The notes: generated by a model not told the origin, from the letters alone. DNA of 64,000 nucleotides from a virus (IMGVR_UViG_3300028591_000073:128001-192000); one strand, 5' to 3'. Positions 15,825 to 63,006 are shown, counted from the stretch's first letter. A program made the numbers and translations.

Positions 15825-18043
15825 TCACCTCCTTCAGTAGTTGCGTGTTCCATGACAGGACTTCCAAGAGGAATTACTTTAGAAACACGTCTTGTTGCAT
15901 TTGTAAAGTTTCGAATTGCTTCCTTAATTCCTTCAATTTCTTCTTTCATTGGAGTGTCATTTAACTTCAATACCATTTCATTCAATGCATGATTTAAATT
16001 CTCCAATTCTTTTTTGGCTTTATCATCAACATCTGCGGACTTTACAGCCATTGCGATAGATTTATTCAAATGCTTTGCATCTTTTTTCGTAGCACCAAAA
16101 ATCTCTGCTAGATTCTTTTTATTGTCATTCAAATCACCAAGTACTTTTCTGACACAAATATTAATCTGTTTCTTCACATCTGTTACGGATTCCAGAACTG
16201 GTTCAATATCTGTATCTACGCTCATTACGGCAGATTCCAAAGCACTCAGATCATCACCACTATCGGTTGGTGTTGTGCCAATAGCACCACTACCATCATT
16301 CAGAAATTCTTTTAACTGACCCATTGGCATTGTCTTAATCTTTTCAATACCTTGTTGAATCATATCATCCATGGACATATTATCAATATCCATATTGCCC
16401 ATTTCCGTATTTCCATCTGTATCTGAAGAAGATGTGGAAGAAGTATCATCAATATCGGTTTCGATATCATCCAAGGAAGATGCTGGGTCTGTTGGATCTA
16501 TGGGAGTTGTACTTGTATCAGCTGTATTACCAAGATCCATTCCACTTGCATCAGATGTTGGTGTGTCCATATTTCCCATATCTGGATTATCTGTTCCACC
16601 CATTGCATCATCCAATCCAGCAAATGTATCATCCACATTCTGATCAAATGTGGGATTTTGATTCATCACATCTGTCTGACTGGCTGCAGCTTGGTTTGCT
16701 GCTGTTGCATTTGCAACATTATCTGCAATCTGTTGTGAAATATCATTTGTTGTTGCTGTCGATGCATCCGGAGATGTTCCACCGGCTGCATTGGGATCCG
16801 CTCCAGCATTCGGATCAGGAGCAGCACCTGCAGTTGGATCTGTACCACCCATTGGATCAGCACCGGCTGGAGCTGCGGCCGGGTCTGTACCACCAGCTGC
16901 TGCATTGGGATCACCACCAAGAGGAGGAGGATCTCCAGCAGGATCACCACCACCGAAATCGATTGCTTCTTGGAAGAATGCAGAGTTTCCAAGCCAACGA
17001 TTAGGTGTAAAATCAAATGCTTCTTTAATTGCTTTCTCTTCTTTGGCTTTGAAATCCTTTTTACAAACAAGATTCATGGCATTAAAGTCTTTATTAGCAA
17101 CCTTGATATTCGGATAAGTATTGTTTTCAGAACCTTCAAGCTTCTTCATGAGTTCTTCCTTATTTTCAATCTTACCACCCTTGGATTGACGAACTAATCT
17201 GGTTTCGACACTCCACATGACCGGATATGGCTGATGCATACCTTCTACTTCAAATTCAATACCAACAACGAATTTATCCATGACAGCTGGAACAATTACT
17301 CTTTTGGGAGTTGCAATATCCCAAATCTCAGAACGATATAGTTCACGGCGATAACCATCACGAATCAACAATCCTCTGAGTGCTTCACCCATATGTTCAA
17401 AAGCTTCCAAATTGGATGCGACACTGAGTGCATGGATTTGATTCATTGAAATCTTGTGATCTGGTGTGGTTTCAAAATAAACGGGAAGTTTTGCAACATA
17501 GTGTCTGGAAGAACCACCTTCATGAAGAGGTCCAAGATCCACCATGACATTAGAAGGAACACGTTCATCAGAAACACTCATCATATCATTTCCGAACAAT
17601 CCTTCTTGTACAATATAAGCATGATATTTTTCATATGCTTTCATTGCAACTTCTTGTACACGTTTCAAATAGGACTGCTGACTTTCTCTGTTGAACATGG
17701 GCGTTCTTGCCATTGCTTCTTGATAGAAGTCATCATAGGTTCTTTCTTGTTCAAATGCTTCACTGGTTTGCACATCCATAGGGATATCGACAATTCTTCC
17801 GGTCTTGACATCCATTTCCACCAGATCTAATTCGATATCATCCTCGATAGGAATGTCGATTACGGGACGTTCACGTTGTGCATTTGTACCAACAATTGTT
17901 AACTCTTCCATTTCACTGAATAAATGTGCACATTCTAGAATGGCCTCATCCATTTCTTGAATGGGGGCATCTTCCTGTGCATGGAAAGCTTTCTGTCTTT
18001 CCTGTTCTTTTTTGGCAATCTCTTGCCTTAGGAAGTTAAGCAT
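15821..18043 (-). CDS. Probable inner-head/virion protein with low-complexity acidic linker
   Basis: 740 aa; FYQEA, FFQEA, IVQEG motifs; G/D/P/A-rich central segment. Confidence 0.6.
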   Translation of the reverse strand: MLNFLRQEIAKKEQERQKAFHAQEDAPIQEMDEAILECAHLFSEMEELTIVGTNAQRERPVIDIPIEDDIELDLVEMDVKTGRIVDIPMDVQTSEAFEQERTYDDFYQEAMARTPMFNRESQQSYLKRVQEVAMKAYEKYHAYIVQEGLFGNDMMSVSDERVPSNVMVDLGPLHEGGSSRHYVAKLPVYFETTPDHKISMNQIHALSVASNLEAFEHMGEALRGLLIRDGYRRELYRSEIWDIATPKRVIVPAVMDKFVVGIEFEVEGMHQPYPVMWSVETRLVRQSKGGKIENKEELMKKLEGSENNTYPNIKVANKDFNAMNLVCKKDFKAKEEKAIKEAFDFTPNRWLGNSAFFQEAIDFGGGDPAGDPPPLGGDPNAAAGGTDPAAAPAGADPMGGTDPTAGAAPDPNAGADPNAAGGTSPDASTATTNDISQQIADNVANATAANQAAASQTDVMNQNPTFDQNVDDTFAGLDDAMGGTDNPDMGNMDTPTSDASGMDLGNTADTSTTPIDPTDPASSLDDIETDIDDTSSTSSSDTDGNTEMGNMDIDNMSMDDMIQQGIEKIKTMPMGQLKEFLNDGSGAIGTTPTDSGDDLSALESAVMSVDTDIEPVLESVTDVKKQINICVRKVLGDLNDNKKNLAEIFGATKKDAKHLNKSIAMAVKSADVDDKAKKELENLNHALNEMVLKLNDTPMKEEIEGIKEAIRNFTNATRRVSKVIPLGSPVMEHATTEGGE

Positions 18044-18310: not shown

Positions 18311-20230
18311 ATGGGTATAGTCAATCAATATGAAACCATGATTGTTGAGATGTATCAACAAACACATCCAAATGTTGACCCACTTCGTTTGAGACAGCTC
18401 GTGTCAAATATGGTTGAGAATCATTTCCAGGATATTCCAGTTCAAATGGACAATAATATTCGGCATGAAACATTCGATACCACAATGACAAATGTATTTG
18501 ATTGGATGGATGAAAGAAAACCAATTATTTCATCAAATGGGACATTCTTCAAACAGCACTCTGAATATCTATCACCAACTGTATTGTTCTTGGAAACATT
18601 ACAGAAGGACAGAAAAGATACCAAGAGAGAGATGTACAAACATCCAAAAGGAAGTATCATGTATCTAAACTTAAACTGTGCACAAGGACAGATTAAGGTA
18701 ATCATGAATTCCGACTATGGCGGAAGTGGTACTCCACTCTCACCTTTTTACAGCATGTATATTCCACCGGCTACAACGGGTTCTGCCAAGAATATGACAA
18801 CCACGTTAATTTGTTGTCTGGAGCTCTTATCTGGGAACAAGGACAGTTGGGCAAAGTTAAATGGAATCAATGAATTGTACGATTTCATCAGAAAAGTGTT
18901 AACAACAAATACTTCAAATCGACAACTAATGGTGCTAGACTCTTACAAGGATGAAGAAGTTGTTGGTCATTTAATTGATATGACAACAAATATCAGCTTG
19001 CAAGATATCAAATATTTGAAAATGTATGTTGCGACATTAACCAATCCCCAGAAGACAAAATTGATGTTGGCAAATAATCTGCGTCATGTTCTAAAAGCAT
19101 ATCTACATGGTAGAGTTGGTTCTATTATGGCATATCTCAAGAGCCATCGTTTGCATGTAGACAACATCACACAAGAGAATATTGATGAATCTGGATATGG
19201 CGTAAAGCCTCCAAAAGAAATCTTAAGTGATTTGGAATATTGTAAGCAGTTTGTATTGGACAATTGTGTGTACCCATTCATTCCCAATGATTGCGAAACT
19301 CGTGCATGGAATATGCACCGTGATGTTGTATGTGTCACAGATACTGACTCATTGATGGTACACTTTGCATCCTATCTGGATGAGTTTCAAGCACATGTAT
19401 CATCTTACCGTGATTCTTGTTTGATTGCATCTGCATTCGGCTTCCGTTTATTCATTGAAGCCGTTATTCCACAGATGACAGAAAACATTGTCATGTATCG
19501 TGGCATTCAGGATGAATATTATCGCAGAAAGTTTGTATTCAAGAATGAATTTGCATTCTTGGCAATGTCATTGTTTGCCAAGAAGATGTACTCTGCATCA
19601 TGCTTTGTACAAGAAGGGAATCCACGTAATATCCATGAAACAGCAGTCACTGGATTATCATTTAAGAAACGTGACTCAGCAGAATTCTTAGAACCAATTA
19701 TGTTACGTTTGCATGACCAATATGTGTTAACTGCGGATAAGATTAACGTATCTGCACTATTGGATGAATATTATGCTTTACGAGATAAATTGAAAGCAGT
19801 TGTGAAAACGGATGCTCATTATCACAAAGCCCAAAGTGTCAAGACAATTAATGCTTATAAATCATTGCCAGCTCACATGAAAGGAATGCTTATATGGAAT
19901 ACCATGTTCCCGGAGGAAGAAATCCTACCGATGGATAGAGTCACCGTTATTCCGTTATCATGGAAGCTATTGGAAGAAAATAGCCACATTCCCGAATTAG
20001 CAAGGATTGCACAATTGGCAAGTATTGATAATCCCAAGCATAAGACAGAACCAGTATTGTCAATTCCAGAAACGTATCACGAGATTCCCGATTGGTTACA
20101 ACCAGCAATTGATGAAGACTATTGTGTGGATAAGTTATTATCTCCATTCAAACAGTTGCTCGGGTTGTTTGATGTTGTTATCAACGATACTCGGGGTGGC
20201 ATGATTCCGAGTCGTATGATATTCCTATAA
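18311..20230 (+). CDS. Family B DNA polymerase, polymerase-domain subunit of a split jumbo-phage enzyme
   Basis: Motif B KVIMNSDYG, motif C VTDTDS, KKMY; no exonuclease domain seen. Confidence 0.85.
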   Translation: MGIVNQYETMIVEMYQQTHPNVDPLRLRQLVSNMVENHFQDIPVQMDNNIRHETFDTTMTNVFDWMDERKPIISSNGTFFKQHSEYLSPTVLFLETLQKDRKDTKREMYKHPKGSIMYLNLNCAQGQIKVIMNSDYGGSGTPLSPFYSMYIPPATTGSAKNMTTTLICCLELLSGNKDSWAKLNGINELYDFIRKVLTTNTSNRQLMVLDSYKDEEVVGHLIDMTTNISLQDIKYLKMYVATLTNPQKTKLMLANNLRHVLKAYLHGRVGSIMAYLKSHRLHVDNITQENIDESGYGVKPPKEILSDLEYCKQFVLDNCVYPFIPNDCETRAWNMHRDVVCVTDTDSLMVHFASYLDEFQAHVSSYRDSCLIASAFGFRLFIEAVIPQMTENIVMYRGIQDEYYRRKFVFKNEFAFLAMSLFAKKMYSASCFVQEGNPRNIHETAVTGLSFKKRDSAEFLEPIMLRLHDQYVLTADKINVSALLDEYYALRDKLKAVVKTDAHYHKAQSVKTINAYKSLPAHMKGMLIWNTMFPEEEILPMDRVTVIPLSWKLLEENSHIPELARIAQLASIDNPKHKTEPVLSIPETYHEIPDWLQPAIDEDYCVDKLLSPFKQLLGLFDVVINDTRGGMIPSRMIFL

Positions 20231-22133: not shown

Positions 22134-23777
22134 ATGAGCACGAAGAAACCCGACGCAATCGAGAAAGCCCTTTTCTATTTATATGACCCTGAAGCCACAT
22201 ATACGTACAATCTACGTCATGGAACTGAATATCCGTATAATGGATTCCCCAAAGGTGCTGATGGTAGAGTGTACAAGAAGACCAGATTCATTAACTGGGA
22301 ACCGATACCAGAAGACGTGATTATTCGTTATTCTGGAGCACAAATCATTGTGAACTTCGAAGCATTATTCCCTGATGTCATTGATGACCCGGCAATTCAA
22401 ATATTCCAGCTTCGTTCTAAAAGACCTATCATTCAGAATTTGATTTGTGAACAAATTAACTTCTTCACCGCATTATATGATGAAGATAATGATTTGCTCA
22501 CAAGCATGTTGATTGCAAAATACAAAACAGATTCCCAGACTTATACCATTAATACGTTCGATGAATTCTATGAGGATATCTATGATACACTCTTTCCTGA
22601 TAGAACAATTGAAAAGATTAACAAAATGGTGGAGGAAAATAATGTCGGAGATGATGTTGTTGGATTATTCCCGGTTGAATTCACGTATGACATGTATAAG
22701 GTCAGCTTCATGATTAAGATTATGCATATCTATGTGGAACACTTTATTCTGTCAACTGGTAATGTACCAAAGGATTTGTATGAGTTGTTTGCTCGTGCAT
22801 TCACGCATATCATGAACAAAACAAATCCCAACATGTATCTCTTACTGTATAACTATGCCAATACAAGAGTATTACAGACCATCACATCCAATCAAGCCAT
22901 TTATGAGATGAGAGCAATTGATGGTGTAACTGCTCCAACAACCACACAACATCTGATGCGAAAAGCATTGATTTGTGATGGTTTGATTAAGCTCACATTT
23001 GCATCAGAATGGGACCCTGTACAAAAGAGACCATCATACAGTTGTGTTGGGTTAATCAAAGCCATCGTTGCCAATTATACCAACAATACTCGCAAGATGC
23101 AATTGCGGTATTCGTTGGTAAATGTAGATGGAGACATCTCTCAATTGTTAGCAGATAATGTTGGAGCAAATGCTCCCATTTCTGTATTAAGGTCTTTCAA
23201 TCCCGGAGAATTCTGTTGCATGCACAAAGACCTGAATATCATCATTGGTCAAATCATTCTGGAAATCGACATCTCTAGTGTCGATTGGTATCTGGAGAAT
23301 TTGGTACAAATGAATGATTTGTCAACCATTTTGGTACAGACCGTGTTGTATAATAAGTTTCATTCTTCCTTAAACATCGATACACTAACCATGAAGCAGA
23401 AGTATATCATACTCCTATATGTTCGCAATATGGTCATGAACATCTATGGTTTAAGCGAAGAAGATACAATTCATCATCCATTGATTAACATTCTCATGGG
23501 TAAAGTAACAAACACTTCCACAAAAACCTTGACTGCGAAGGACCTGAATGGTGTCAAGAAATATGTGAAGTTAAACAATCTGAGAGATTATTTGCTGTCC
23601 GAGAAGAATGTCAACACCTATGTGGAAAAGATTATTCAGTGTGTCTTGTCCAACTATACCATTGTCAATCACAATGACCCTTCATTACTGAATACACCAT
23701 TGGTATATGATTCTGGTAATATGACAGTCATGTTACTGGAAATGATTGTGTCATTGTTTGAGTCGTTTCTATCATAA
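22134..23777 (+). CDS. Non-virion RNAP sigma-like promoter-specificity subunit (AR9 gp226-like)
   Basis: Helical protein; segments IVNFEALF, NDLLTSMLIAKY, EFYEDIYDTLF, KMVEEN, YNKF recall AR9 gp226 (from memory, not aligned); directly upstream of beta'. Confidence 0.6.
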   Translation: MSTKKPDAIEKALFYLYDPEATYTYNLRHGTEYPYNGFPKGADGRVYKKTRFINWEPIPEDVIIRYSGAQIIVNFEALFPDVIDDPAIQIFQLRSKRPIIQNLICEQINFFTALYDEDNDLLTSMLIAKYKTDSQTYTINTFDEFYEDIYDTLFPDRTIEKINKMVEENNVGDDVVGLFPVEFTYDMYKVSFMIKIMHIYVEHFILSTGNVPKDLYELFARAFTHIMNKTNPNMYLLLYNYANTRVLQTITSNQAIYEMRAIDGVTAPTTTQHLMRKALICDGLIKLTFASEWDPVQKRPSYSCVGLIKAIVANYTNNTRKMQLRYSLVNVDGDISQLLADNVGANAPISVLRSFNPGEFCCMHKDLNIIIGQIILEIDISSVDWYLENLVQMNDLSTILVQTVLYNKFHSSLNIDTLTMKQKYIILLYVRNMVMNIYGLSEEDTIHHPLINILMGKVTNTSTKTLTAKDLNGVKKYVKLNNLRDYLLSEKNVNTYVEKIIQCVLSNYTIVNHNDPSLLNTPLVYDSGNMTVMLLEMIVSLFESFLS

Positions 23778-23797
23778 GAAAGTGAGGAGGATTTAAT

Positions 23798-25186
23798 ATG
23801 ATTTTGAAACGTATGAGTCTGGAAGCCGAATACTATGTGGACATGATTACCCATAATGGATTTCGTATTGAAAACGAGGATGTGTATTCACCAACTGACC
23901 CGAGCATGTTGGTGAATTCATCCAAGTTTACAGATAACGAATTTCGTTGTGACTGTGGTGCTTTTACTGGTCAAGATATCGTTGGTCAAAAGTGTCCGTT
24001 ATGTGGTTCAGAGATTGCATTGCATTCTCTGAACTTCCGTTATACTGGATGGGTGGATATCTATCCACATCGTGTAATTGCACCAGCTTATTATCACCTG
24101 CTAAAACGAGCTATTGGACAAAATATGATTAACTTCATTCTCGGTAATTATAAGGCAGATAATGATGTCAAATATAATGAGAATGATGTCGAGTTTGAGA
24201 AGAAACAAAAGACCAAGAAACGTGGTCGTGTGGCAACCAATGATATTGCAAATATCATCAGAAAGATTCCGCAAAATAAACATCAGTTCAAAGGAATTGG
24301 ACATGACGCATTCTATCAACGTTTCGAAGAAGTCTTGACAGCATGTGATTCAAAGCCACATCACGATGACATCCTTAGACTGTTGGAGAATAAGAATGAT
24401 GTCTTCACCAGTAAGATTCCAATCTATAGTACAGCCTTCAGACCAACCAATACCACATCTGAGAGTAAGTTCTATCCCACTATCAATAGATGGTTGGCAA
24501 AGATTGTTTCACTGAATTGTCAGTTAAAGTTCATGACGATGGATTTACAGATTATGCATACGCTTAATTGTATGCAAAACAATTGGTTGGAAGCCGTTGA
24601 TTATCTGGTCGAAAGTGAAATGGATAAGAAGACCGGGTTTATCCGTAGTGAGATTGTTGGTGGACCGTTTCAATTCTCTTCCAGAGCAGTTATCACATTA
24701 GACCCATCTTTGAATATTGATGAAGTTGACCTTCCGTATAACATGTTGGTTATCGTATATCAGTTCAAGATTGCACACATGTTGAAGAATCGTTTGAACA
24801 TGACATTGGAACAAGCATGCTTATATGTGAAAACGTATACAACAGCGCCAGAGGTTGTGGCTTGTATGGATGAGATTATTGGAAAAGGTGCTTGGTGTGT
24901 AATTCTGAGAGAACCGACAAACAATCTTGCATCCATCTGCTTATGCAAAATCAGAAGATATAAGTTGGATGATAATGATGATACCATGAGCATTACCATT
25001 GAATGCTTAGCTGGATTAAATGCTGACTTTGATGGTGACCAGCTTGATGTATTCATCGTAGATGATTATGGTAAAGAATGCTTTATGCCATTCCATTATT
25101 CTTGCATGACCAACTATGTCACTGGCGAATTCGACATCTCCTTGAGAGAATGGTATGCGATTAGCGCTGGCAGAATGAGTGAATGA
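23798..25186 (+). CDS. Phage RNA polymerase beta' subunit, N-terminal part with catalytic loop
   Basis: Zn finger CDCG...CPLCG, SSRAVI, REPT, NADFDGD. Confidence 0.92.
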   Translation: MILKRMSLEAEYYVDMITHNGFRIENEDVYSPTDPSMLVNSSKFTDNEFRCDCGAFTGQDIVGQKCPLCGSEIALHSLNFRYTGWVDIYPHRVIAPAYYHLLKRAIGQNMINFILGNYKADNDVKYNENDVEFEKKQKTKKRGRVATNDIANIIRKIPQNKHQFKGIGHDAFYQRFEEVLTACDSKPHHDDILRLLENKNDVFTSKIPIYSTAFRPTNTTSESKFYPTINRWLAKIVSLNCQLKFMTMDLQIMHTLNCMQNNWLEAVDYLVESEMDKKTGFIRSEIVGGPFQFSSRAVITLDPSLNIDEVDLPYNMLVIVYQFKIAHMLKNRLNMTLEQACLYVKTYTTAPEVVACMDEIIGKGAWCVILREPTNNLASICLCKIRRYKLDDNDDTMSITIECLAGLNADFDGDQLDVFIVDDYGKECFMPFHYSCMTNYVTGEFDISLREWYAISAGRMSE

Positions 25187-48381: not shown

Positions 48382-49263
48382 TCATTCGGCTGCTGTAGCT
48401 GCAAGAGCAGCTTCGACGCATTCAGACGCCACTCTGATTGCATCTTGCTTGGTGGCACAAGCCGCTATGCTCAGCCAGTTTGTCACAAACGTGACGCCAT
48501 CCGGCTTCTGGTCAAGCCATTTCGCCGGAAGTTTCCAGGCGGGGTCTACGACCTGGATGTTGTAGCTGCCCGGGTCGCGACCCGGGAACACGGCCATTTT
48601 CAGACCATGTTCCTTGGCATACGCCTGCCAAGGTACAAACTTATCCATCACAAGGATGGAATCATTCAGTACCTGTGCATGTTCTGCCAGCCAGCTTGCT
48701 GCCTTTGCAGCAGACAGGTCTTTTTCAATGGCATTCACGAGAGCAGGTGTTAGCCAGTCCACCGCTCTCATAAATGCATCGTTGGGATTCTCGTCAGAAT
48801 CCCAAGTGGGATAGAAGTCACGGACCGTCGTCCATGCCGGCGTCCAAACGACCCCCGTATCATGGAGGTCGATGGAATGGATGATACTACTCAACGTGGG
48901 GAACTCATCCTTTCTTCCCCACGCCTCCCACAAGAGGCCCACGGCAGCGTGGACTTCATCGTGAGGTGTGCCTCTCTTCAGGAGGATACTGCCATCCTCC
49001 TGCACCACCTCTTCGTCCTTGATAGGACGATACTGGTGGTGGTCAAATAAGGCCACCCCATCATGCTGACGGCCGACATCAGCGATGATGTGCTGCACAT
49101 CTGCAGCTTTCACATCCGGGTTGTTATTACGAATGATGAGTACATCCGGAAACTGCAGACGCAGCAGTGCTGCGACTGCAACATCATCGGCATGAAACAT
49201 GCCGGAATGTACTGTAACGGATTTTACTGCGGATGTAAAATTAAAAAGATTATAAGTAGCCAT
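48382..49263 (-). CDS. MYG1-family (DHH-like) nuclease/hydrolase
   Basis: HSGMFHADD, ADVG, FDHHQ, AVGLLW, IDLHDTG; GC clearly above flanks; start ATG 49263 after AAAGGAG. Confidence 0.85.
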   Translation of the reverse strand: MATYNLFNFTSAVKSVTVHSGMFHADDVAVAALLRLQFPDVLIIRNNNPDVKAADVQHIIADVGRQHDGVALFDHHQYRPIKDEEVVQEDGSILLKRGTPHDEVHAAVGLLWEAWGRKDEFPTLSSIIHSIDLHDTGVVWTPAWTTVRDFYPTWDSDENPNDAFMRAVDWLTPALVNAIEKDLSAAKAASWLAEHAQVLNDSILVMDKFVPWQAYAKEHGLKMAVFPGRDPGSYNIQVVDPAWKLPAKWLDQKPDGVTFVTNWLSIAACATKQDAIRVASECVEAALAATAAE

Positions 49264-49419
49264 AAGGCTCCTTTCCACCTTTGCAGGTGTACCGACTTAT
49301 GGTCTCGGGTAGACCTAAAATAACGAACAGAAATATTCAGTGATTGCTTTCTAAGTTTGATCCGTTATGTCGTATTTGACTTCCTATAAAGATAGGTGTG
49401 ATCATTAATACTAGCAATT

Positions 49420-49844: not shown

Positions 49845-51638
49845 TTATGCATTTTGTATCACTTGAACCAATTGATTCAATGTTCCAATATCAGCAGCAA
49901 CTACCTTTGCAAGTGTCGAATAAGATTTCGTTACGACTTTCATGTATTCAATGCAATTATTATATACCTTTATTTTCGTGCGATAAATGGAGTTGTTGTC
50001 ATTCTCCAATCCTTCCAATTCACCAACAAAGTTATTTGTAATATCTGTCCAAAATGCAACAGTCTGTGAAATGATATCTAATATACAGAAATAGTTTTTG
50101 AAACCGGAGATATCGATACCTTGTGGAGTTTTTGCAGCATTCTCAATACCATTTCCAAAATGACGCAACTGTTGTTCATCTGCTGGGAAGGAATCAAAGA
50201 ATAAGTTCGCAACACCGGCAGCATTCTGTTGTGTCACAACAACTTTGGTTTTCATCAAATCCAATTGTTGTAACCGTTTCAAACAAGTCAATGCCGGAGG
50301 TTTCTGTTGATATTTTGGATCATGAGCTTGGAATATTTGTCCAACAGAACCAATTACATTTGCATATCTTCCATTTCTGATTTCAGACAACTTAACAACC
50401 TCTTGTGTTAACCAGAATGCCATATTTGCGAAATACATTAATGGTTCAATTTCCATAGAAGAAGTACGATCATTCCACAAGTATAACATAACACCATTCT
50501 TGAATAATGCACCAATTCCTCTGTTCTTAACAAACTTTGCCAATGCATAAATACGGTGGTTTGTTTTTTCAACAATAGAACGAATCAGATTTGTTACTTT
50601 TCGAATGAGTTTGATGATACCTGCAAATGCACCGACAATCAAATGGAAGCCGGACATCTTTCTGGAGTATACACGGTCTGCAGTTGTTGCAATTTCTTCT
50701 TGGAAGATCTGTGGCTGTGCTAGTTTCATGACACCTTCGGTAATATAATCATCCGTGGAATATTCCAATACAAACTGTACGGTTTCCATATACAAGAATC
50801 CACGTTCCATTTCTTCCACAGCTTCTTGGATTTCTTTATTCTCCACTTCAACATTACCAGCATCATCTTTTGAAATAGAAGTAACATGCAGATTGAATTT
50901 GTCAACTGCTGTTGCCATGGCAGAACCTTCATCCATGCCCATGGCCAATAATTCTTCATATTCCTTACGGATATCTGGATCCTTGGGTTTATATTCTTCG
51001 CCAGTGATTTCTGCTTTTGCAAACAAGAGCTGTTCCATATGATATCTTTCTTCATCTGCAATATCTGAATACAAACGCTGAAGAATATCCACTTTGGATG
51101 TCTTGGCAGCTTCCAAATAATCTGATAAAGCCTTTGCTTCATCTGCAACAAACTCCATGACTTTGGCAACTTCAGCTGGATCATATTGATTGTTGGGGAG
51201 ATCATCGCCGCCATGTTGGCCGAATGTGCTCATATCATCTTCATTATCATCTTCGATTGGAGTGTCTGTTGGAGTTTCGGTATCTTCATCTTCAGTTTCT
51301 TCCGGAATTGTACCATTAATTCCATCAGTTTCCACAGGAGCTTTGTTATCGGTATCTTCACCTTGCATATCATCTGTTGTATCTGTGGTATCATTCATGT
51401 TGTCATCTAATGATGCATTGTCAGATGTTTCATCATTCACTTCCGTATCAGAGTCAACATCTTCTTCGGAGTCTTCTTCTCCATCTTCCTGATAATAGCT
51501 ATCGTTCATGGCTTCAAAGAAAGCATCCAGACCACGTGCAGAACCAGACGGAATTAAACGATTTGGTTTCTTTCTCTGAGTTTCGAATTGTTCTTCTCTC
51601 TGTCTACGTGCAAATGTTTCAATGGATCTATCCATCAT
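49845..51638 (-). CDS. Probable virion protein containing a ferritin/rubrerythrin-like helical module
   Basis: DEAKALSDY...LYSDIADEERYH (ExxH); YYQE, IQEA and FQEE motifs. Confidence 0.6.
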   Translation of the reverse strand: MMDRSIETFARRQREEQFETQRKKPNRLIPSGSARGLDAFFEAMNDSYYQEDGEEDSEEDVDSDTEVNDETSDNASLDDNMNDTTDTTDDMQGEDTDNKAPVETDGINGTIPEETEDEDTETPTDTPIEDDNEDDMSTFGQHGGDDLPNNQYDPAEVAKVMEFVADEAKALSDYLEAAKTSKVDILQRLYSDIADEERYHMEQLLFAKAEITGEEYKPKDPDIRKEYEELLAMGMDEGSAMATAVDKFNLHVTSISKDDAGNVEVENKEIQEAVEEMERGFLYMETVQFVLEYSTDDYITEGVMKLAQPQIFQEEIATTADRVYSRKMSGFHLIVGAFAGIIKLIRKVTNLIRSIVEKTNHRIYALAKFVKNRGIGALFKNGVMLYLWNDRTSSMEIEPLMYFANMAFWLTQEVVKLSEIRNGRYANVIGSVGQIFQAHDPKYQQKPPALTCLKRLQQLDLMKTKVVVTQQNAAGVANLFFDSFPADEQQLRHFGNGIENAAKTPQGIDISGFKNYFCILDIISQTVAFWTDITNNFVGELEGLENDNNSIYRTKIKVYNNCIEYMKVVTKSYSTLAKVVAADIGTLNQLVQVIQNA

Positions 51639-54600
51639 TCATCAGTCCTTTCGGTTAATTTCATAAAGAACACATGATCATCCTCATCACATACATTCCA
51701 ACCATATTTCTTGTACATGTGGAATGCTCGTTTGTTCTTTTTGTTTACGGACAAGTAGGTTGCACCAAAGTCATCTACGGCAATCTGTAAAAGATCCACG
51801 CCATAATCATGTCCCTGATATTCCTCTGATACTTCCAATGCGGTAATCCAACGTTGTCCATTAATCTTCTTCTCAACTGCAACATATGCTACGACAATAT
51901 GATTTTCATCAATATAAATTGCACCTTTTGTATTATCATTCACACGAACACGTCGCAATCCATGTTTAAACACACCTTGATCTTTGTATTTTTTGACGGA
52001 TTGTTCTGTTAATGGAATATAGTGATACTTCTCTTTCAAGGTATTATGATTTGTTCCCATATAAGATTCTTGTACAAATCCTTTGAGTGCAGATTCCATT
52101 TCCGATACGGACATGTGGATCTTATCATTATCGAAAAATGATTGATGGAATTGTAATCCTTCTTGCGTAAACAGTTGTGTTGCATTTAATAGATTAATGA
52201 TATCAAATGCGGTATTATCATCCATTTGTTGGATCTGCTCATTGATCTTCATGCCATCATCAGATAAATATTTATGATCTGACAAATATTGCCAATATGT
52301 TTTCATTGTCTTTGTTTGATGATTAATACGGATTTCATTCTTAATAAACTTGCCATTGAGATATACTTGATTGATGTATCCAACATACGTATCTCCATCA
52401 CGTGGTTCAAAGGAAGACACATCAATGAGATCTTGTTTCATAAGCTGTAAATCCTCTTGTGATAAATGTAAATCAAATGTTTGAATCAGATGAGATACAA
52501 CATCATCCATATTCTCAACTAAGAAGACACCATTCTTCTCATGGGTCAATGATGTTTCAATCAATACAATGGAATCTGTATCATTTGGAACAATGGTAAA
52601 CTGATGCCAAAATGACATGTCATTATTGTTGTGCTGTTCAACTGCAATAGACTCGGATTCTTGTTGGATACTTGTATCTTCATCTTCTTCGGGTGGTTGG
52701 GTGTGGTCAATATTACAATTCAAGAAGAAGGTTTGACATGGCAATCCTCGATCCTTCAACAGCTTCGCAACATAGAAAGAATGCTCGAAACATACACCAA
52801 GTTTGGATTGTTCCATTGATTGAATGGACTGAGAATGGTATGTGGAAATCATCTTCCAAGAATCTTTGAATGGAGATGCTGTAATACGTTCCCCATTCTC
52901 ATCTAAGCATCCATAATGTATCTGAGAAGCTTGTTGGAATACTTCTTGACATTGCTGTCTGAGAGAGTTGATGTCTACCGCTTCTTGAACAATTTTCCGA
53001 TTCTTCAATTCTTTTTTATAGAAATCATTGGAGAAGATTAAACTTTTGATCGTTTTAAAAGACCCTTCACAAAGACGATTGCATGTTGATAATAGCTCAT
53101 CATCTTCTTCATAATTGTGATTAATTACGTGCTGAATCTTTCCATTTTCATTTATCATGAAATGAATCGTAATATCAGACAAACGAATGTACTCATTCCA
53201 ATACGTGTCTTGAATATGTGATTCGATATATTTCTCCCATATTTTACGTTTAGACCAATCAAATGTGACACAATAATTTCCATCATCTTCTTCAATTTCA
53301 AATCCTTTATCTTTCAGATCGTAAATAGAATCATCAACACCCATTGCATATGATATACATTTATCATGATAATCTGCTTCTTGATAAGGATGATATTTTG
53401 GATCATCTGAATGCTGTCCAGTCCAATGTACTTTTACATCGACTTTCTTTTGATTAGACCAATCGATATGATCGATGTCATATATTAGATATTCTCTATG
53501 AGGAGACATCCAATCATATTTTCCGATATGATCTTTTAAATCCGAAATATCGACTTCATATACATATCCGCTCATATCCTTTGTGTGTTCGGTTTCATCA
53601 TTCAACCCTTCCACTTGCATGTGAATCTCATCAATATATTCATTTTTAGGATGAGCCCATTCGTCATAATGATAGTTAAATCTTCCATGAGGAATTCCCA
53701 ATTCTTCTTTATTCTTAGACACTGCAAAAATACATGCCAATGATTTGAATGGGGTTACAAACAATGGACGATCACAATCAATCCCATCTTTATATTCATT
53801 CGGTGTTCCAAAATAAACTTTGTCATATTTCAGATCTTTCACTTCATAGATCTTATCATGATTTGTTGCATTTGGATGTGTCGTTTGTATCGGATGATAT
53901 GCTTCTTGTACTTTTTTATCCAAGTATGGTTTCAATGATTCCCAGTTCTCCCAATCCATACCCAATTCCTTTACACGTTTCACAATGTTCTTTGCCAATT
54001 CTTCTTTGTATTCATCGGGTGCTTTATTAAAAAAACGAACGGCTTGTAAGACATGTTTCTCATCCGTCAAAGGATACTTCCTTAATTCAGGAATCCCAAA
54101 TTGAGAATCATCCAAATCATTTCTGTCATCGGTAGATAACTTTGCTTCTTGATACACTTGATCCCATGATGTAATCGGTTCTGTCATTGATGCAAGATGA
54201 ATGTTAATCTTCGGAATATATGGTAGCTTCACTTTGATACTAACACCAGGCACAAAATCACAAACCTCAATCATCGATATAAACAACATACGGAATGCTT
54301 GATACAAAGGGACTAATTTCACCATTCCTGGACTAGAATCAAATGCATCGATTGCCGTTTTTACCAACTTGAATCTCATATTTGTATTTGTACGAATATT
54401 CTTAATCCATGATGGTTCTTTATTCTTTTCCAAATGACCAGGCGGTAGCGTTTGTTTCAAATCATCAATGAATTGATCACGCCGATCATGTAGTTGATCA
54501 TACATCTTTTGGAACGGTTCTCCACCTACTTTTTTCATCTGATGCAATGTCATTAATGTTTTTTCCCACAACTTCTGATAATCTACAACTGCTTTATTGA

Positions 54601-56569
54601 TATCCTTTTGATAATCTTGGATCACTTTTGTTCGATCAGGAGGAGTTTGTACTTCCTCTTGATATACATCATCTGCTGATTCATTATCATAGAACTTGTC
54701 CACATAAGAATCCATGATCTTATCCAATATCTTATGAGATGCCTTTTCTGTCAAATTACCAACTAACTTATCACCAATATGATCATTAATGTGTAATTCA
54801 CGTTTCTCATATTCCCACACATCCATCATTTTCTGAATGACAATTTTCACACCACCACGATTGAAATTTCGATTTAAGTCAATAATATTATCTCGAATTT
54901 CATAAATCAATCGATCGATGTATTGACGGTGAGACATACTACGTTTTTCTGGTTTACGAGCAAATCCCAAGCGAGAAGTTTTGATTGGTACCTCGGTATA
55001 GTCTTCTTCAATGTTATCATAGATCTCTGCTAATTTATTATACAAAGAAGCCAATCTTTGCACGATTTCACGTTTTGTCATATGATTCATTTCTTTCCGA
55101 AGATATACGATCTCCGAATTGAAGCTCATGGCACGTTCAAAGTTCTTCTTTTCCTCATATGTTGCATCCGTATGTCTCCAACCGCTGACACCTCTACGTG
55201 AAAATGCAGCTGCTTCTTGATATACATCATCGAAATCACTCTCCAAAAAAGATTCTTTCATTGGCCTTGTTGGAGAAGTGCTTGCTGTATTGATAATATC
55301 TTTTAAAAGATTAATATACAACGTGGAACCTTTTAATTGCAATTGTAATTCAATTGTAATATATCTCACATACTGTTGAAATGCAGGAGATTGTTGTACA
55401 TTTGGATTCAATTGTTGCTGTTGATCCTTGATAAATTGATTTGTTGACGTAAGTGCCTTATAGCATGGCCCAATCATTTTTGTATATTGTTGAATCACCT
55501 GATCAATTTGTTGTTTGGAATATACATCCCTTGGTCTATTTTGTGTTGAAACCGCTTCCAATTGTTTGTATTTTGCAAGAACCTGTTGATCTTGTTCAAT
55601 CAACTTTTGATATTCTGCACCTTTCGATGGGTCAAATTTTGAATATCTATCGGCATTTTCAACATGAGGAGCTTGTTGTAATGAAATCATTATGGACTCA
55701 AAATTTATTTTATCCAATGCAATTTTTGAATAATTTAATTGTAAAGCTCGTTGTGTCAATTGTTGCACTTGTTTATTCTGATAATTAGCAGAAATTTGAT
55801 TGATCATTCTGGAGATCCAATTCTTGATACGATCCCACGTAGATACTTGATTCACACCATTATCATATCCATTATGTGGAACATTAGTTTGTTTTACTTT
55901 CCCAGATTCCATAAAATAAGATTCCAATAAATATTCAATTTCATAATCATAATTGAAATCCAACACATCAGATTCTTCCACAATTTGGGGTTGTTCTTTT
56001 TTCGTCATATCATCAAACACCCACTTTCCATGTTCAATCATCCAATCCATATATTCACCAATTTCACAACCATATTTTGGATGGCTATTTGTGTATTCAA
56101 AGACAGAGTATTTCACTCCATTCAAATGTTCTTTGTTTCTAGAACCTCGAAAACATCCCCATGCTGCCATCTTTAATAAATCTCTCAATTTAGAAAAAAT
56201 ATGAACACCTTGAGAATTCTTCATGGAAGATTCTACCCAAATAAACTTCCCTTCTGTTTCGATGACAACAAAAGTGTGTGTATCATAATCAGGAGGTGTT
56301 TCGGTAATTAAATAGAATTTACGACATGAGACATCGCGTTCTTTCAACCATGCCTCTTCATATTCGACATAATCAAAACAAATTCCACCACCATTTTGTT
56401 CAAACTCATCAGGAGATTGGAATCGATAATATTTCGCAATGTCTTTGTTGGATACATGTGTCTTCAGTTTTCCGTCTTTCGCAATACCATACTCAAAATG
56501 CTTGTCGAGATGTTTATACAACTCTTCACACAGTTTCTTTGTTTCCTTTAATGAACCCACATCTATCAC
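51635..56569 (-). CDS. Multidomain probable polyprotein: two transglutaminase/papain-like modules, DUF6582-like module, C-terminal GNAT acetyltransferase
   Basis: GICFDY...HTF...VES and GVCFEH...HQF...IET; FGIPELRKYPLTDEKHV; LEVSEEYQGHDYG...NKRAFHMYKKYGW; repeated [YV]QE[AS]. Confidence 0.7.
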   Translation of the reverse strand: MIDVGSLKETKKLCEELYKHLDKHFEYGIAKDGKLKTHVSNKDIAKYYRFQSPDEFEQNGGGICFDYVEYEEAWLKERDVSCRKFYLITETPPDYDTHTFVVIETEGKFIWVESSMKNSQGVHIFSKLRDLLKMAAWGCFRGSRNKEHLNGVKYSVFEYTNSHPKYGCEIGEYMDWMIEHGKWVFDDMTKKEQPQIVEESDVLDFNYDYEIEYLLESYFMESGKVKQTNVPHNGYDNGVNQVSTWDRIKNWISRMINQISANYQNKQVQQLTQRALQLNYSKIALDKINFESIMISLQQAPHVENADRYSKFDPSKGAEYQKLIEQDQQVLAKYKQLEAVSTQNRPRDVYSKQQIDQVIQQYTKMIGPCYKALTSTNQFIKDQQQQLNPNVQQSPAFQQYVRYITIELQLQLKGSTLYINLLKDIINTASTSPTRPMKESFLESDFDDVYQEAAAFSRRGVSGWRHTDATYEEKKNFERAMSFNSEIVYLRKEMNHMTKREIVQRLASLYNKLAEIYDNIEEDYTEVPIKTSRLGFARKPEKRSMSHRQYIDRLIYEIRDNIIDLNRNFNRGGVKIVIQKMMDVWEYEKRELHINDHIGDKLVGNLTEKASHKILDKIMDSYVDKFYDNESADDVYQEEVQTPPDRTKVIQDYQKDINKAVVDYQKLWEKTLMTLHQMKKVGGEPFQKMYDQLHDRRDQFIDDLKQTLPPGHLEKNKEPSWIKNIRTNTNMRFKLVKTAIDAFDSSPGMVKLVPLYQAFRMLFISMIEVCDFVPGVSIKVKLPYIPKINIHLASMTEPITSWDQVYQEAKLSTDDRNDLDDSQFGIPELRKYPLTDEKHVLQAVRFFNKAPDEYKEELAKNIVKRVKELGMDWENWESLKPYLDKKVQEAYHPIQTTHPNATNHDKIYEVKDLKYDKVYFGTPNEYKDGIDCDRPLFVTPFKSLACIFAVSKNKEELGIPHGRFNYHYDEWAHPKNEYIDEIHMQVEGLNDETEHTKDMSGYVYEVDISDLKDHIGKYDWMSPHREYLIYDIDHIDWSNQKKVDVKVHWTGQHSDDPKYHPYQEADYHDKCISYAMGVDDSIYDLKDKGFEIEEDDGNYCVTFDWSKRKIWEKYIESHIQDTYWNEYIRLSDITIHFMINENGKIQHVINHNYEEDDELLSTCNRLCEGSFKTIKSLIFSNDFYKKELKNRKIVQEAVDINSLRQQCQEVFQQASQIHYGCLDENGERITASPFKDSWKMISTYHSQSIQSMEQSKLGVCFEHSFYVAKLLKDRGLPCQTFFLNCNIDHTQPPEEDEDTSIQQESESIAVEQHNNNDMSFWHQFTIVPNDTDSIVLIETSLTHEKNGVFLVENMDDVVSHLIQTFDLHLSQEDLQLMKQDLIDVSSFEPRDGDTYVGYINQVYLNGKFIKNEIRINHQTKTMKTYWQYLSDHKYLSDDGMKINEQIQQMDDNTAFDIINLLNATQLFTQEGLQFHQSFFDNDKIHMSVSEMESALKGFVQESYMGTNHNTLKEKYHYIPLTEQSVKKYKDQGVFKHGLRRVRVNDNTKGAIYIDENHIVVAYVAVEKKINGQRWITALEVSEEYQGHDYGVDLLQIAVDDFGATYLSVNKKNKRAFHMYKKYGWNVCDEDDHVFFMKLTERTDE

Positions 56570-56580
56570 CTCTTCTTATA

Positions 56581-56652
56581 TATTATACTATATACACATT
56601 GACCTCCGGTCAATTTAATACTATACATGAATATTTAGAAAATAATAGTTTG
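56581..56652 (-). repeat. Diverged third copy of the 43205/63919 promoter-leader element
   Basis: Shares ATTGACCTCCGGTCAATTTAATA, ATACATG and AATAATAGTTT. Confidence 0.8.
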
Positions 56653-56667
56653 TTTACACAGGAACTA

Positions 56668-56685
56668 CGGGGGCATGAGCCCCCG
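56668..56685. terminator. GC hairpin of the palindrome family (variant loop)
   Basis: CGGGGGC-ATGA-GCCCCCG. Confidence 0.6.
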
Positions 56686-56716
56686 CATATTCCCATATGT
56701 TTTCACTCGTTTGTGA

Positions 56717-56986
56717 TTAGAACCAACGGCCAATCTTCGGTGTTGTTGCTTCTGTATGCTTTGTATAGCCGTAAGTTGTGTCAGATCTTTCTTCCAATTC
56801 AATATCCGGGATGCCGTCATAAGACTTGAGAGCACCGTTACCACCAGAGATGATAGATTCCGGATTAAATGAATTGAATTTAGAATCAAAGAGGTCCTTG
56901 TAACCAGAGGAACCAGCATCATAGCTTTCCTGATAAGGTGCAGCACCATCAAGAGAGAATCCGTATTCGAAATCCTGTTCAAACAT
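56717..56986 (-). CDS. Small hypothetical protein, probably virion-associated
   Basis: AAGGAG RBS, PYQES motif. Confidence 0.6.
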   Translation of the reverse strand: MFEQDFEYGFSLDGAAPYQESYDAGSSGYKDLFDSKFNSFNPESIISGGNGALKSYDGIPDIELEERSDTTYGYTKHTEATTPKIGRWF

Positions 56987-60219: not shown

Positions 60220-63006
60220 TTATTCTCCCTTGGAATAAGATTGAGAAATGAATTGTCTCCAGCACTGCTCCAATTGATCACGGATGGTATGGTAATCATA
60301 TTGCATGCACTTATCATAATAGATGCGAAGGAACTGTGCACCACGTTCTGTCACTTCATTTGTTGTCAATACAGAATCAGATCCGATATGTTTCATTTCA
60401 TCTTTTCCAGCAGGTGTTAATAAAGAATGTTTATCAAGGAATTTGTAAACTTCTTTGAATCTCTTAATGACATTCTTCTCATCCATTCCTTGATCAGTGT
60501 GCCAAGAAACTTTATCAAACTTTTGGAATGATTTATCGGAATAATATTGACGACGTGCAAAAGTAATGGAATTGATCGTATCATCAGAATTCAATACTAC
60601 TTCAATTGACATGATCTTAGAAACAAGCTTGTCATCACCTTCTGGTTTGATGTCAAGTGCTTTCTTTCTCAGATTATCAATCTTCCCAGGGAACACAATG
60701 GATCGATCAAGTTCAATTTGGATGTCCTTGATGATGGTAACACGAGCCACTTTATCGCTTTCATAATATACGATAAACTTTCCATAATCATCCATTTCTA
60801 CTGTGGATTTTTTTGGCTGACCAAAATCCTTTTCCAGTTTCTTTTGTGTCTTTGTACGTGTTGCACCAAATTCGATATCCTCAACTTCCTTACCAGGTTT
60901 TACTTCCCATTCAATCAGTTCGTCTTGGTCTTTCCGTTTGCTATTACTGACTACACCAGCGCCATCATATGATTCATCCATTTCAGCATACCATGAAGAT
61001 TTCAATTCACCAGTCTCTGGATCGATGTAGAATTCTTCTTCCAATTCATCATCTTCATCGTCATCATTTTCGGAATCTTCTTCATCATCATCTTCATCAT
61101 CATTGTCTTCATCGTCAATGTCTTCTTCGTCATCGTCTGTGTCTTTGTCTTTATCGTCATCTTCAGAATTATCTTCGTCTTTGGATTTGTTATCTGTATC
61201 CTTTTCGGGATCATTTGCTTCATCATCTTCATCAAGATTGGCATCGGAATCATCTTCATCGGATTCTTGGTAATAGGAGGATTGCATTTCACCATTTTCA
61301 TCCAGATAGAATTCTTCTTCATACTCTGGTTCATCTTCATCAGAAATGACTTCAATGTCTCTTCTATATGGTTCAGCACCAACGATTGGACCATGGTCAT
61401 ATCGATTGATCAAATCATTTGCTCTGGACTTATAAGAATTGATGATATCGACCTTGAGAGAACGTTTTCTCATACCTTGATCAACGAGTTGATGATAACG
61501 TGGATCTCCCTCTTCCTTAGCCAGCATTAAAGCAACGCATGATGTTACAATGTTCATGATGGTATCATCTGTTAATCTCATGCCATTGATTTCCACACCG
61601 TTCTTCTCCGCAAGATCTTGGAGTTCCTTTTGTTTACGATAATGAACAAGCATTTCACCAACTTTTGCAAACATGGCATCTTCTCCAGATTCCATTGTGA
61701 CATTACCATCGGCTTCATCGATATCATATTCAAACAACCAAAGCTTCTTTGCAATATCACGGACATGACGAATCACCATTGGTTGAGAACGTTCACATTC
61801 TGTGATCATATCTTGTTGCAAATTATTAATCATCTTGATTGTCTTCTTCATTAAAGATTTACTTGGTTTTTCATTTTTGGGGTCTGATAAGATTTCAATA
61901 TTCTTTTCGATATTCTCAATATCCTGATCGATAACTCTCTTAAGACCTTGATAAGAACGCTTGGGATCATGCGCATCATCATGTTTACTGGAATAATAGG
62001 ATTCACGACGTTCTTTCAATTCATTGAAGATATTTGTCATTTCTTCCAAGATGGCTTCTTTCGATGCTCTCTTCATTAGTGTCTTATACAGATGCTCAAG
62101 ATCTTTGGAAGAATTAGCAATGAATGTGTAGTAGTTGTTCTCACCAAGGCGGGATTCCATTGCTTCATCAATGTCTTGTTTTGCGGTCTTCTTAATGAGT
62201 GCAGCCGCTTCCTGATAACGATAGGATTCTGATATCTTATCACCGATTTTATTTCCAGCATCTCGAACAGCTTCACCGGCTTTACGTTTTACGGTACGTG
62301 CAGCTTTATCAACCTTATTCTTGGATTCAAAAGCATCGAAGATGGCATTACGGGCATCCATTCTGGATTGTGCTGCATCTCGCGCCCATTTATCTTCCAT
62401 ATCATAGTCATGTTTGTAAGCACGGGGGATTGTATTTAGAGTTTCTTTTACAGCACCACCAAAACTGCCAGCGTTCTTGATTTTATCAAGGTCATCTGCG
62501 GCATCATCAAATCTATCTTTGATACCACTACCTAGTTCATGGAAACCTCTCTTAAGACCTTTGACGACTTGATGACCTGTTTCTTTGATACCTTCTTTAA
62601 AACCTTCTTCTTCGACATCGATTTCTTCATCATTATCATCTGATGTGTCATTTTTATCGGTGTCATCATCTTTGGTATCTTTCTTCTTAGATGATTTCTT
62701 TTTGGATTTCTTCTTATCATCCTTTTTATCGTCCTTATCATCAGAATCCTCATCGTTTTCATCAGAAGAACCATAATCGAAATCATCATCAACATCTACG
62801 TCGGCAGGTTCAATAGTTGCACCTTGGTCATTATCAAGATCATACTTATCATCATACTTTTCGGACGTATTGGATTCTTCATCATCTACATCAGCTTTTG
62901 CTTTCTTAGCTTCTTGGTAGATATGAGAATCGCCTTTGTATCGAACTTTTTGTTCTTGTACTGGCTCTTCGTCGAGCAGTTTGAGTGTATCTCCAAAATC
63001 AATCAT
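60220..63006 (-). CDS. Large acidic modular protein, probable inner-head/polyprotein
   Basis: D/E-rich tracts; IYQEA, RYQEA, YYQES; internal repeat EEEFY[LI]D..GE..SS[YW]Y. Confidence 0.65.
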   Translation of the reverse strand: MIDFGDTLKLLDEEPVQEQKVRYKGDSHIYQEAKKAKADVDDEESNTSEKYDDKYDLDNDQGATIEPADVDVDDDFDYGSSDENDEDSDDKDDKKDDKKKSKKKSSKKKDTKDDDTDKNDTSDDNDEEIDVEEEGFKEGIKETGHQVVKGLKRGFHELGSGIKDRFDDAADDLDKIKNAGSFGGAVKETLNTIPRAYKHDYDMEDKWARDAAQSRMDARNAIFDAFESKNKVDKAARTVKRKAGEAVRDAGNKIGDKISESYRYQEAAALIKKTAKQDIDEAMESRLGENNYYTFIANSSKDLEHLYKTLMKRASKEAILEEMTNIFNELKERRESYYSSKHDDAHDPKRSYQGLKRVIDQDIENIEKNIEILSDPKNEKPSKSLMKKTIKMINNLQQDMITECERSQPMVIRHVRDIAKKLWLFEYDIDEADGNVTMESGEDAMFAKVGEMLVHYRKQKELQDLAEKNGVEINGMRLTDDTIMNIVTSCVALMLAKEEGDPRYHQLVDQGMRKRSLKVDIINSYKSRANDLINRYDHGPIVGAEPYRRDIEVISDEDEPEYEEEFYLDENGEMQSSYYQESDEDDSDANLDEDDEANDPEKDTDNKSKDEDNSEDDDKDKDTDDDEEDIDDEDNDDEDDDEEDSENDDDEDDELEEEFYIDPETGELKSSWYAEMDESYDGAGVVSNSKRKDQDELIEWEVKPGKEVEDIEFGATRTKTQKKLEKDFGQPKKSTVEMDDYGKFIVYYESDKVARVTIIKDIQIELDRSIVFPGKIDNLRKKALDIKPEGDDKLVSKIMSIEVVLNSDDTINSITFARRQYYSDKSFQKFDKVSWHTDQGMDEKNVIKRFKEVYKFLDKHSLLTPAGKDEMKHIGSDSVLTTNEVTERGAQFLRIYYDKCMQYDYHTIRDQLEQCWRQFISQSYSKGE

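Follow-up and report, generated by a model that had tools for sequence, protein, structure and literature searches.

The window analysed here is a 64,000-nucleotide stretch (IMGVR_UViG_3300028591_000073:128001-192000; G000:C1:128001-192000) of a 294,548-bp IMG/VR virus record that is rated complete by CheckV; the virus is an uncultured gut or rumen phage of the jumbo-phage type with a genome of 295 kb. Its minus strand carries an open reading frame (ORF) for a putative polyprotein, hereafter P0001, in which short motifs ending in Gln-Glu stand at the joints between modules. Coordinates refer to this 64-kb window unless prefixed G000, which denotes the whole genome; a slash in a motif marks the putative scissile bond, with P1 as the residue preceding it and P1' as the residue following it. 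The ORF and its modules are:

51635-56569, minus strand: whole polyprotein ORF (P0001), 1644 aa, nine modules
55973-56569, minus strand: S1 (aa 1-199), probable transglutaminase-like cysteine protease, ends IVEE/S
55214-55972, minus strand: S2 (aa 200-452), helical, modelled with low confidence, acidic tag at its start
54656-55213, minus strand: S3 (aa 453-638), helical, ends VYQE/E
54146-54655, minus strand: S4 (aa 639-808), four-helix-bundle-like, ends VYQE/A
53903-54145, minus strand: S5 (aa 809-889), DUF6582-like, ends KVQE/A
53378-53902, minus strand: S6 (aa 890-1064), confidently folded mixed alpha/beta domain in the model, no named relative, ends PYQE/A
52982-53377, minus strand: S7 (aa 1065-1196), poorly modelled, ends IVQE/A
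52067-52981, minus strand: S8 (aa 1197-1501), second probable transglutaminase-like cysteine-protease copy plus a helical extension, ends FVQE/S
51638-52066, minus strand: S9 (aa 1502-1644), predicted GNAT acetyltransferase

The GTG at 56560 is the likely true start of the ORF, as it is better spaced from the GAAGAGG ribosome-binding site, which the first GTG (56569) directly abuts; the database homologues P0002 and P0003 begin at the equivalent of position 56560. Among GenBank phages, tblastn and megablast returned a single 68-residue match to the DUF6582-like part, the region being otherwise without match, and a search of viral contigs for related loci gave no relatives. One metagenome scan found two related loci only, the near-identical L006 and L007, the latter with a polyprotein orthologue that is 54% identical.

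Seven motifs of the form [YV]QE[AES] are found in P0001, with P1 Glu at residues 452, 638, 808, 889, 1064, 1196 and 1501 (codons at 55216, 54658, 54148, 53905, 53380, 52984 and 52069, respectively), compared with a mean of 0.155 in 20,000 composition-preserving shuffles of the protein. The more restricted forms [YV]QEA and VYQE, observed five and three times, were expected 0.03 times each in the same shuffles, and the observed counts were reached by none of the 20,000. Genome-wide, the strict motif occurs 17 times in the 90,891 residues of called ORFs, with seven occurrences in P0001 and three in a 928-aa acidic protein encoded nearby, and its frequency outside these two proteins is approximately the rate predicted from composition. 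An eighth joint is formed by IVEE/S (Glu199/Ser200). The joints of P0001 can be summarized as hydrophobic-x-Glu (in most cases [VY]-Gln-Glu) with A, S or E at P1', where homologues also have G; clusters of sites are present at both ends of S2 (Glu 199/216/221 and 439/443/452). The sequence-only reading that preceded this analysis had proposed a protein divided by QE motifs into domains. All seven motifs were recovered where it had put them (P1 Glu codons 55216 to 52069), the segments between them have the claimed lengths (186, 170, 81, 175, 132, 305 and 143 aa), and the EES/LES/MES cluster that it had seen near residue 200 exists (Glu 199, 216 and 221), with Glu199/Ser200 being an exact module joint. 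Its domain calls were borne out as well: the GNAT and DUF553 matches exceed their cut-offs, the wording 'DUF6582-like' proved apt, and the second transglutaminase-like copy is homologous to the first (E 7e-13).

A search of 5.8 billion proteins yielded 40 homologues of 934-1856 aa, every one of which contains several hydrophobic-Gln-Glu-[ASGE] sites. Single-linkage clustering of the motif-delimited segments chained all of them into one family, and break-point analysis was used instead. In BLAST comparisons with P0001, the homology blocks end near residues ~200, ~450, ~650, ~805, ~888, ~1064 and ~1195; 168 of the 188 ends of high-scoring segment pairs (about 40 homologues) fall at most 20 residues from a site, compared with 39 for random site sets, and 121 fall at most 10 residues away, compared with 20, neither count being reached in 5,000 random site sets. 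The module swapping at QE sites that had been suggested as a check is thus seen, modules being swapped, deleted, inserted and reordered exactly at the motif: in other family members the S1-type module is found at position 150, 284, 457, 639, 815 or 1120, and a dozen homologues have the DUF6582-like module at the N-terminus. Where the closest homologues read ...PQIVEE/AAAFSRRG..., P0001 reads ...PQIVEE/S, followed by 252 residues and then ...VYQE/AAAFSRRG..., so that the 253-residue S2 cassette sits exactly between P1 Glu and P1'; it is this insertion that identifies Glu199 as the eighth joint.

The residues flanking the exchanged modules indicate what is conserved at the joints. Upstream of the DUF6582-like module, where the preceding modules are unrelated, the last four residues vary widely (VYQE, IFEE, LMME, VIQE, IIQE, LFME, FFTE, YFVE, FFGE and others), with Glu constant and P3 invariably hydrophobic; likewise, in 16 of 16 S8 homologues with differing upstream modules, x-x-Glu immediately precedes AVDINSL. 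Since P3 and P2 are variable, the conserved entity is a peptide pattern and no DNA word. Searched exhaustively with HMMER, 1.84 billion representatives clustered at 50% identity yielded 1,676 proteins at E <= 0.001; their lengths span 128 to 2785 aa, free-standing single-module proteins are among them, and the best-matching stretches keep to the same module limits. Among the top representatives, 125 of 137 internal DUF6582-like instances have hydrophobic-x-Glu at the boundary (±2 residues; ~16% expected by chance), and in 36 S5 instances the site lies inside the first 25 residues, meaning that the module here follows a short N-terminal leader. The N-terminal leaders that were read in homologues comprise 6-20 residues and end in hydrophobic-x-Glu before the first module, and some free-standing proteins begin with Met plus P1' (MAKLS). 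Homologues without S1 or S8 (P0035, P0038-P0041) retain leader and motif. It is very difficult to account for this comparative pattern unless some function attaches to the hydrophobic-x-Glu/small-residue bond.

Whether the QE motifs sit inside folded domains was checked with two AlphaFold models, one of residues 809-1644 (mean predicted local distance difference test score, pLDDT, of 74) and one of residues 1-808 (mean pLDDT 57). The sites lie between domains: averaged over 10-residue blocks, pLDDT is 31-58 at each of the seven hydrophobic-Gln-Glu sites, and the low-confidence stretches at model residues 78-83, 256-275 and 358-388 correspond to sites 889, 1064 and 1196. The eighth joint, Glu199/Ser200, likewise lies in a low-confidence linker. 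Look-alikes of the motif that lack Gln and occur within domains (Glu 15, 72, 113, 856 and 1582) are located in blocks of mean pLDDT 83-94. The GNAT fold begins 5-13 residues past the last site, and the first residues of S8, from P1' onwards, are those of P0001's own N-terminus. Three independent lines (the models, the start of S8 at P1' and the start of the GNAT fold) hence equate the motifs with predicted domain boundaries.

Several of the modules can be assigned with varying precision. S1 matches Pfam DUF553 at residues 10-109 (22.4 bits, cut-off 20.5), is modelled with pLDDT 80-94 and has a Cys-His-acid triad (Cys64, His98 and Glu113) that is kept in at least 90% of the alignment. The structures that it resembles best are those of the CPR-C4 cysteine protease (7pjo; Z 11.2, 158 residues aligned, root-mean-square deviation (rmsd) 3.6), vasohibin (6j4s; Z 10.2) and LapG (4fgo; Z 9.0). 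S8 is homologous to residues 1-200, and S1 and S8 are both predicted to be probable transglutaminase-like cysteine proteases of the LapG/vasohibin/CPR-C4 type. Between Cys and His, S8 carries an acidic, low-confidence insertion loop (aa 1291-1316; 52640-52700, minus strand) with IQQE/S in P0001 and canonical PIQE/S in the homologues P0015 and P0017; this could be the site of an internal activating or inactivating cut. S9 matches PF00583 at residues 1545-1624 (26.7 bits, cut-off 20.7), phrog_3810 agrees on an acetyltransferase, and RimI (5isv) is a structural match with Z 13.6 and rmsd 2.5 over 123 residues (model residues 706-832), in line with S9 being a predicted RimI-like GNAT. The tRNA-acetylating toxins TacT and AtaT score nearly as well (Z 11.6-11.9), so that the substrate class of S9 is not fixed by its fold, and the coenzyme A-binding loop, Q-G-H-D-Y-G, deviates from the usual Q/R-x-x-G-x-G/A.

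For the remaining modules, S5 scores below the cut-off for DUF6582 (PF20223 at 811-867, 21.9 bits, cut-off 27.3; phrog_16160, E 9e-6), and 'DUF6582-like' is therefore the right label. S2 opens with an acidic Tyr-hydrophobic-hydrophobic-Glu tag, as found at the N-termini of several head-module proteins of the same genome, and weakly matches a 378-aa gene (G000 18884-20020) in the head-gene block upstream of the protease gene described below (E 4e-6); it is absent from the closest homologues and N-terminal in P0015 and P0021-24. S3 is shared by the 22 closest homologues found, and S4 is restricted to the closest relatives, its structural matches being helical bundles only and uninformative. S6 is modelled at pLDDT 91-97, had no Pfam match and gave only 'hypothetical protein' clusters in an Atlas search; S7 also occurs as free-standing proteins of ~130 aa (P0255). 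Foldseek/VIA searches of multi-domain models were dominated by GNAT, S1 and generic helical bundles, and uninformative on S6 and S7. No MPTase domain was detected by Pfam in P0001.

A candidate for the cleaving enzyme is encoded in the head module of the same genome:

G000 23586-24428, plus strand: S80 head protease, 280 aa, PF20034 Peptidase_S80

It scores 33 bits against the Peptidase_S80 profile (cut-off 23.4) and matches phrog_3014 and phrog_207 ('head maturation protease'), with no sequence match in the PDB. An identity as a gp21-type (S77) protease was rejected, PF03420 reaching only E 0.21 and 11.5 bits on this protein (cut-off 27), and a Pfam scan of the genome gave no match to the T4 families PF03420 and PF07068. 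The protease itself has FIQE/S at residue 20 and candidate C-terminal autocleavage sites at YME/A (207) and VCE/S (234); for SPN3US gp245, autocleavage is reported at 203, with 234 and 246 as possible further positions. The major capsid protein (728 aa, phrog_20655) contains ...F-L-V-Q-E/S-Y-N... at residue 131, nearly equal to the S8/S9 joint G-F-V-Q-E/S-Y-M. In 121 capsid homologues (63-98% identity) Glu131 and Ser132 are invariant and Gln130 is present in 119, with Val, Ile or Met at P3. Residue 131 is a putative cut site of the capsid protein, and the resulting propeptide of 131 residues would fit the range of 111-254 residues reported for SPN3US propeptides. Glu is the residue after which S80 proteases cut; the SPN3US motif is A-x-E, and the sites known in phiKZ include SQE-122 (PMC10052503, PMC5694885). 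Cutting after Glu is common to T4 gp21 and all S80 members, and redundant propeptide cuts have been described (PMC10052503, PMC5694885, PMC9026906).

The motif extends to genes around the polyprotein that are devoid of its cysteine-protease modules:

56717-56986, minus strand: 89-aa ORF directly upstream, MFEQDF leader as in polyprotein homologues, PYQE/S at residue 20
49845-51638, minus strand: 597-aa gene, start overlapping the polyprotein stop by 4 nt, IQE/A site kept in L007
59121-60098, minus strand: 325-aa gene, two conserved YIQE/A sites at residues 24 and 55
60220-63006, minus strand: 928-aa acidic protein, two genes upstream, hydrophobic-Gln-Glu sites at residues 32, 266 and 581

The sites of these four neighbours are conserved in L007, with 48-65% identity for the three that were aligned; for the 928-aa protein, site 32 is kept, 266 appears as YGE/S, and 581 lies in a stretch absent from L007. 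The 89-aa ORF is conserved in both L006 and L007 and, judged by its leader and site, looks like a small tagged cargo protein. Elsewhere in the window, a 740-aa protein (15821-18043, minus strand) of high local G+C content and without Pfam or PHROG match has sites at residues 109, 147 and 359 and is probably another abundant protease substrate. Downstream of the cluster, a 298-aa protein (48382-49278, minus strand) has an N-terminal MYG1-exonuclease-like match (PF03690, E 6.5e-16) and adjoins the Ro60 gene region.

Expression of the polyprotein was approached through its upstream region:

56570-56716, minus strand: upstream region, G+C hairpin without T-run followed by a header of ~90 nt

The hairpin (56668-56700, minus strand; GCGGGGGCTCATGCCCCCG) lies between the 89-aa ORF and the polyprotein. 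An 11-mer of it, ATATGCGGGGG, has seven copies in the genome, and a similar hairpin is present in L007. Within the header (56570-56660), TATAGTAT-N6-G forms a promoter core of the AR9-like early type, accompanied by the leader GACCGGAGGTC. Six genes share this header, CTATTATTT..CATGTATATTATTAAATTGACCGGAGGTCAAT, with its palindromic leader, the polyprotein copy having TATAGTAT in place of TATATTAT. The other copies are located at G000 94820(-), 125003(+), 171246(-) = 43246, 191959(+) = 63959 and 286028(+), and the header also precedes the genes for a family-B DNA polymerase and an AAA ATPase, an Imm40-like gene and two small genes. Its core, GTATA(G)TAT-TAAATT-G, agrees with the early consensus of the AR9 virion RNA polymerase (RNAP) at all but one base, and a role as a promoter of this phage is predicted; the AR9 consensus reads ...TATATTAT-N6-G (PMC5312081). 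In AR9, promoters of this kind can be silenced by a one-base deviation, and both promoter types are present at genes with continuous expression (PMC5312081). L006 has the header with the same mismatch, and the L007 orthologue has kept the hairpin, with the header absent. One late-like match, AACA-N6-TA, lies upstream of the polyprotein. As this strict AR9 late motif is not general upstream of structural genes in the genome, promoter class does not settle the timing, and expression may be early, middle, continuous, or late by read-through.

In our view, and with moderate confidence, P0001 is a polyvalent cargo polyprotein of nine modules that is cut by the phage's own S80 prohead protease. The joints would represent the recognition motif of this Peptidase_S80 (phiKZ gp175-type) enzyme, with cleavage after Glu. 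The chain would enter the assembling prohead, possibly via S2 with its acidic tag and/or the helical S3, and the activated protease would then act on the exposed linkers, freeing as individual proteins the two LapG/vasohibin-like cysteine proteases, the RimI-like GNAT, the DUF6582-like module and several further modules. These pieces would stay with the DNA and be ejected into the next host. The prohead protease appears to be the most economical agent because the capsid protein, the protease and module-free neighbours carry the motif as well, because P1 Glu is typical of S80, because homologues without cysteine-protease modules keep the motif, and because it closes the N-terminal leaders. The connection that the sequence-only reading made with the prohead protease has thus gained strength from the S80 gene, the invariant capsid motif and the N-terminal leaders, whereas the early/middle-type header is at odds with a simple late-gene picture.

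Several points weigh against our proposal. Cleavage and packaging are inferred, not observed, and the same applies to the identity of the protease, ejection and host targets. The header of the polyprotein is common to replication genes (DNA polymerase B, AAA ATPase), which indicates early or middle rather than purely late transcription. P0001 and its closest relatives are without the short N-terminal leader, and P0003-P0007 are also without S2, which leaves these proteins lacking a recognised targeting signal. At sites 452, 638 and 808 the term 'linker' applies with less certainty because the N-terminal model is weak (mean pLDDT 57), and the two built-in probable cysteine proteases could cut the chain themselves.

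The last point deserves further consideration. Viral 3C- and NIa-type proteases cut their own polyprotein joints, and with S1 and S8 looking LapG/vasohibin-type, self-processing is a live rival: S1 and/or S8 would cut the joints in cis or trans in the cytoplasm, independently of the head. S1 resembles true cysteine proteases (Z 11.2/10.2/9.0) and retains the Cys-His-acid triad, an early/middle-type header would suit a cytoplasmic protein, and Iyer et al. 2017 (PMC5512222) predicted autoproteolysis of polyvalent proteins by built-in peptidases. We nevertheless regard this as quite unlikely, as the motif is also present at the capsid propeptide boundary, near the N-terminus of the S80 protease and in neighbours without a cysteine-protease module, P0035 and P0038-P0041 have leader and motif despite lacking S1/S8, the invariant P1 Glu is a hallmark of S80 and S77 head proteases, and the short motif-ended N-terminal leaders resemble targeting peptides. 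Unlikely as well, though to be taken seriously, is an uncleaved multidomain enzyme that acts at full length, possibly early and outside the virion, with the motif serving as a linker cap, docking motif or recombination-joint signature. Such an enzyme would be compatible with the fact that cleavage of the chain is inferred only, with the promoter header common to replication genes, and with precedents for intact proteins, since 42 SPN3US head proteins stay uncut and polyvalent proteins of the N4 virion RNAP type are packaged unprocessed (PMC5512222). It gives no account, however, of a hydrophobic-x-Glu followed by a small residue, of the match to the capsid site or of leaders of 6-20 residues; the variety at P3 and P2 argues against a DNA-level recombination signal, and at either end of S2 the clusters of sites recall the redundancy of propeptide cuts in phiKZ and SPN3US. 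Cleavage might, finally, serve clearance instead of enzyme release, P0001 being a scaffold-like or inner-body component of the head core that is chopped up. The long helical segments of S2-S4 are reminiscent of scaffold and inner-body proteins, and T4 core proteins are cut to fragments that exit the head; we nonetheless judge this improbable, considering that at least four modules are predicted compact domains with enzyme folds and conserved catalytic residues, that the same modules exist as free-standing genes, and that rapid module turnover fits conflict effectors rather than scaffolds.

The proposed cleavage of P0001 by the S80 prohead protease can be set against known systems: propeptide removal with redundant cuts is established for phiKZ-type head proteins, T4 has its capsid-targeting sequence, and injection has been predicted for polyvalent proteins. 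The head, inner-body and ejection proteins of the jumbo phages phiKZ, 201phi2-1 and SPN3US that are processed by S80 gp175/gp245 share a predicted cut after Glu in a three-residue motif that is often x-Gln-Glu, and phiKZ and SPN3US further resemble our phage in their redundant sites and in the capsid propeptide, of ~130 residues here. They differ in that P3 is Ala/Ser/Gly instead of hydrophobic or aromatic (V, I, Y, F), and in SPN3US 13 of 14 reported cuts remove N-terminal propeptides, whereas in P0001 eight sites part nine autonomous modules, several of them predicted enzymes, that are exchanged as cassettes at the putative scissile bond. In T4, the capsid-targeting sequence of IPI-III and Alt is removed by gp21 (Mullaney and Black 1996; reviewed in PMC9026906), which is comparable to the motif-ended leaders of many homologues; the P3-hydrophobic/P1-Glu pattern likewise resembles the T4 L/I-x-E, and T4 cargo is similarly diverse with fast turnover. 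Unlike T4, however, the protease is S80 and not S77, P0001 has no N-terminal leader and starts directly with S1, and each T4 cargo protein is a single unit instead of a chain. Polyvalent proteins, as portrayed by Iyer, Burroughs, Anand, de Souza and Aravind 2017 (PMC5512222), are large, combine many unrelated modules including RimI-like GNATs and peptidases, show extreme mosaicism and are predicted to be delivered with the DNA. P0001 has at least two unrelated effector-type domains and a mosaic architecture, the features that define this class; Iyer et al. proposed processing by built-in peptidases of the zincin-like MPTase type, whereas in P0001 a head-protease motif is found at every joint. 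Picorna-like virus and potyvirus polyproteins share the repeated short protease motif, a small P1' and a cysteine protease within the chain; here, by contrast, the virus is a dsDNA phage whose likely protease is encoded elsewhere and would act in the capsid, and P1 is Glu, not Gln. A full-text literature search retrieved no description of a chain of enzyme modules that is split by head-protease sites and swapped at the scissile bond.

More tentatively, at a level of confidence that falls somewhat short of even, we extend this reading to the large gut and rumen clade to which the phage belongs: its jumbo phages may use the head protease to release plug-and-play cargo cassettes that are delivered with the DNA. 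Any module ending in hydrophobic-x-Glu could then join a carrier chain by insertion at the scissile bond, be loaded into the capsid within that polypeptide and be cut free, and arsenals of enzymes (proteases, acetyltransferases, kinases) would be traded between phages as protease-delimited cassettes. If true, this would account for module recombination exactly at the scissile bond and would extend the role of S80/T4-type head proteases from propeptide trimming to the release of enzymes from one chain, amounting to a polyprotein strategy in a dsDNA phage. The packaged proteome would become readable from sequence, and the proteins that a jumbo phage injects would be predictable from its genome by reading the protease motif. 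The family of 1,676 hits would then constitute a large natural modular library of candidate host-modifying or anti-defence enzymes, and the junction rule (hydrophobic-x-Glu/small residue) would offer a natural rule for designing foreign cargo of large phage capsids, a use to which the T4 capsid-targeting sequence has already been put.

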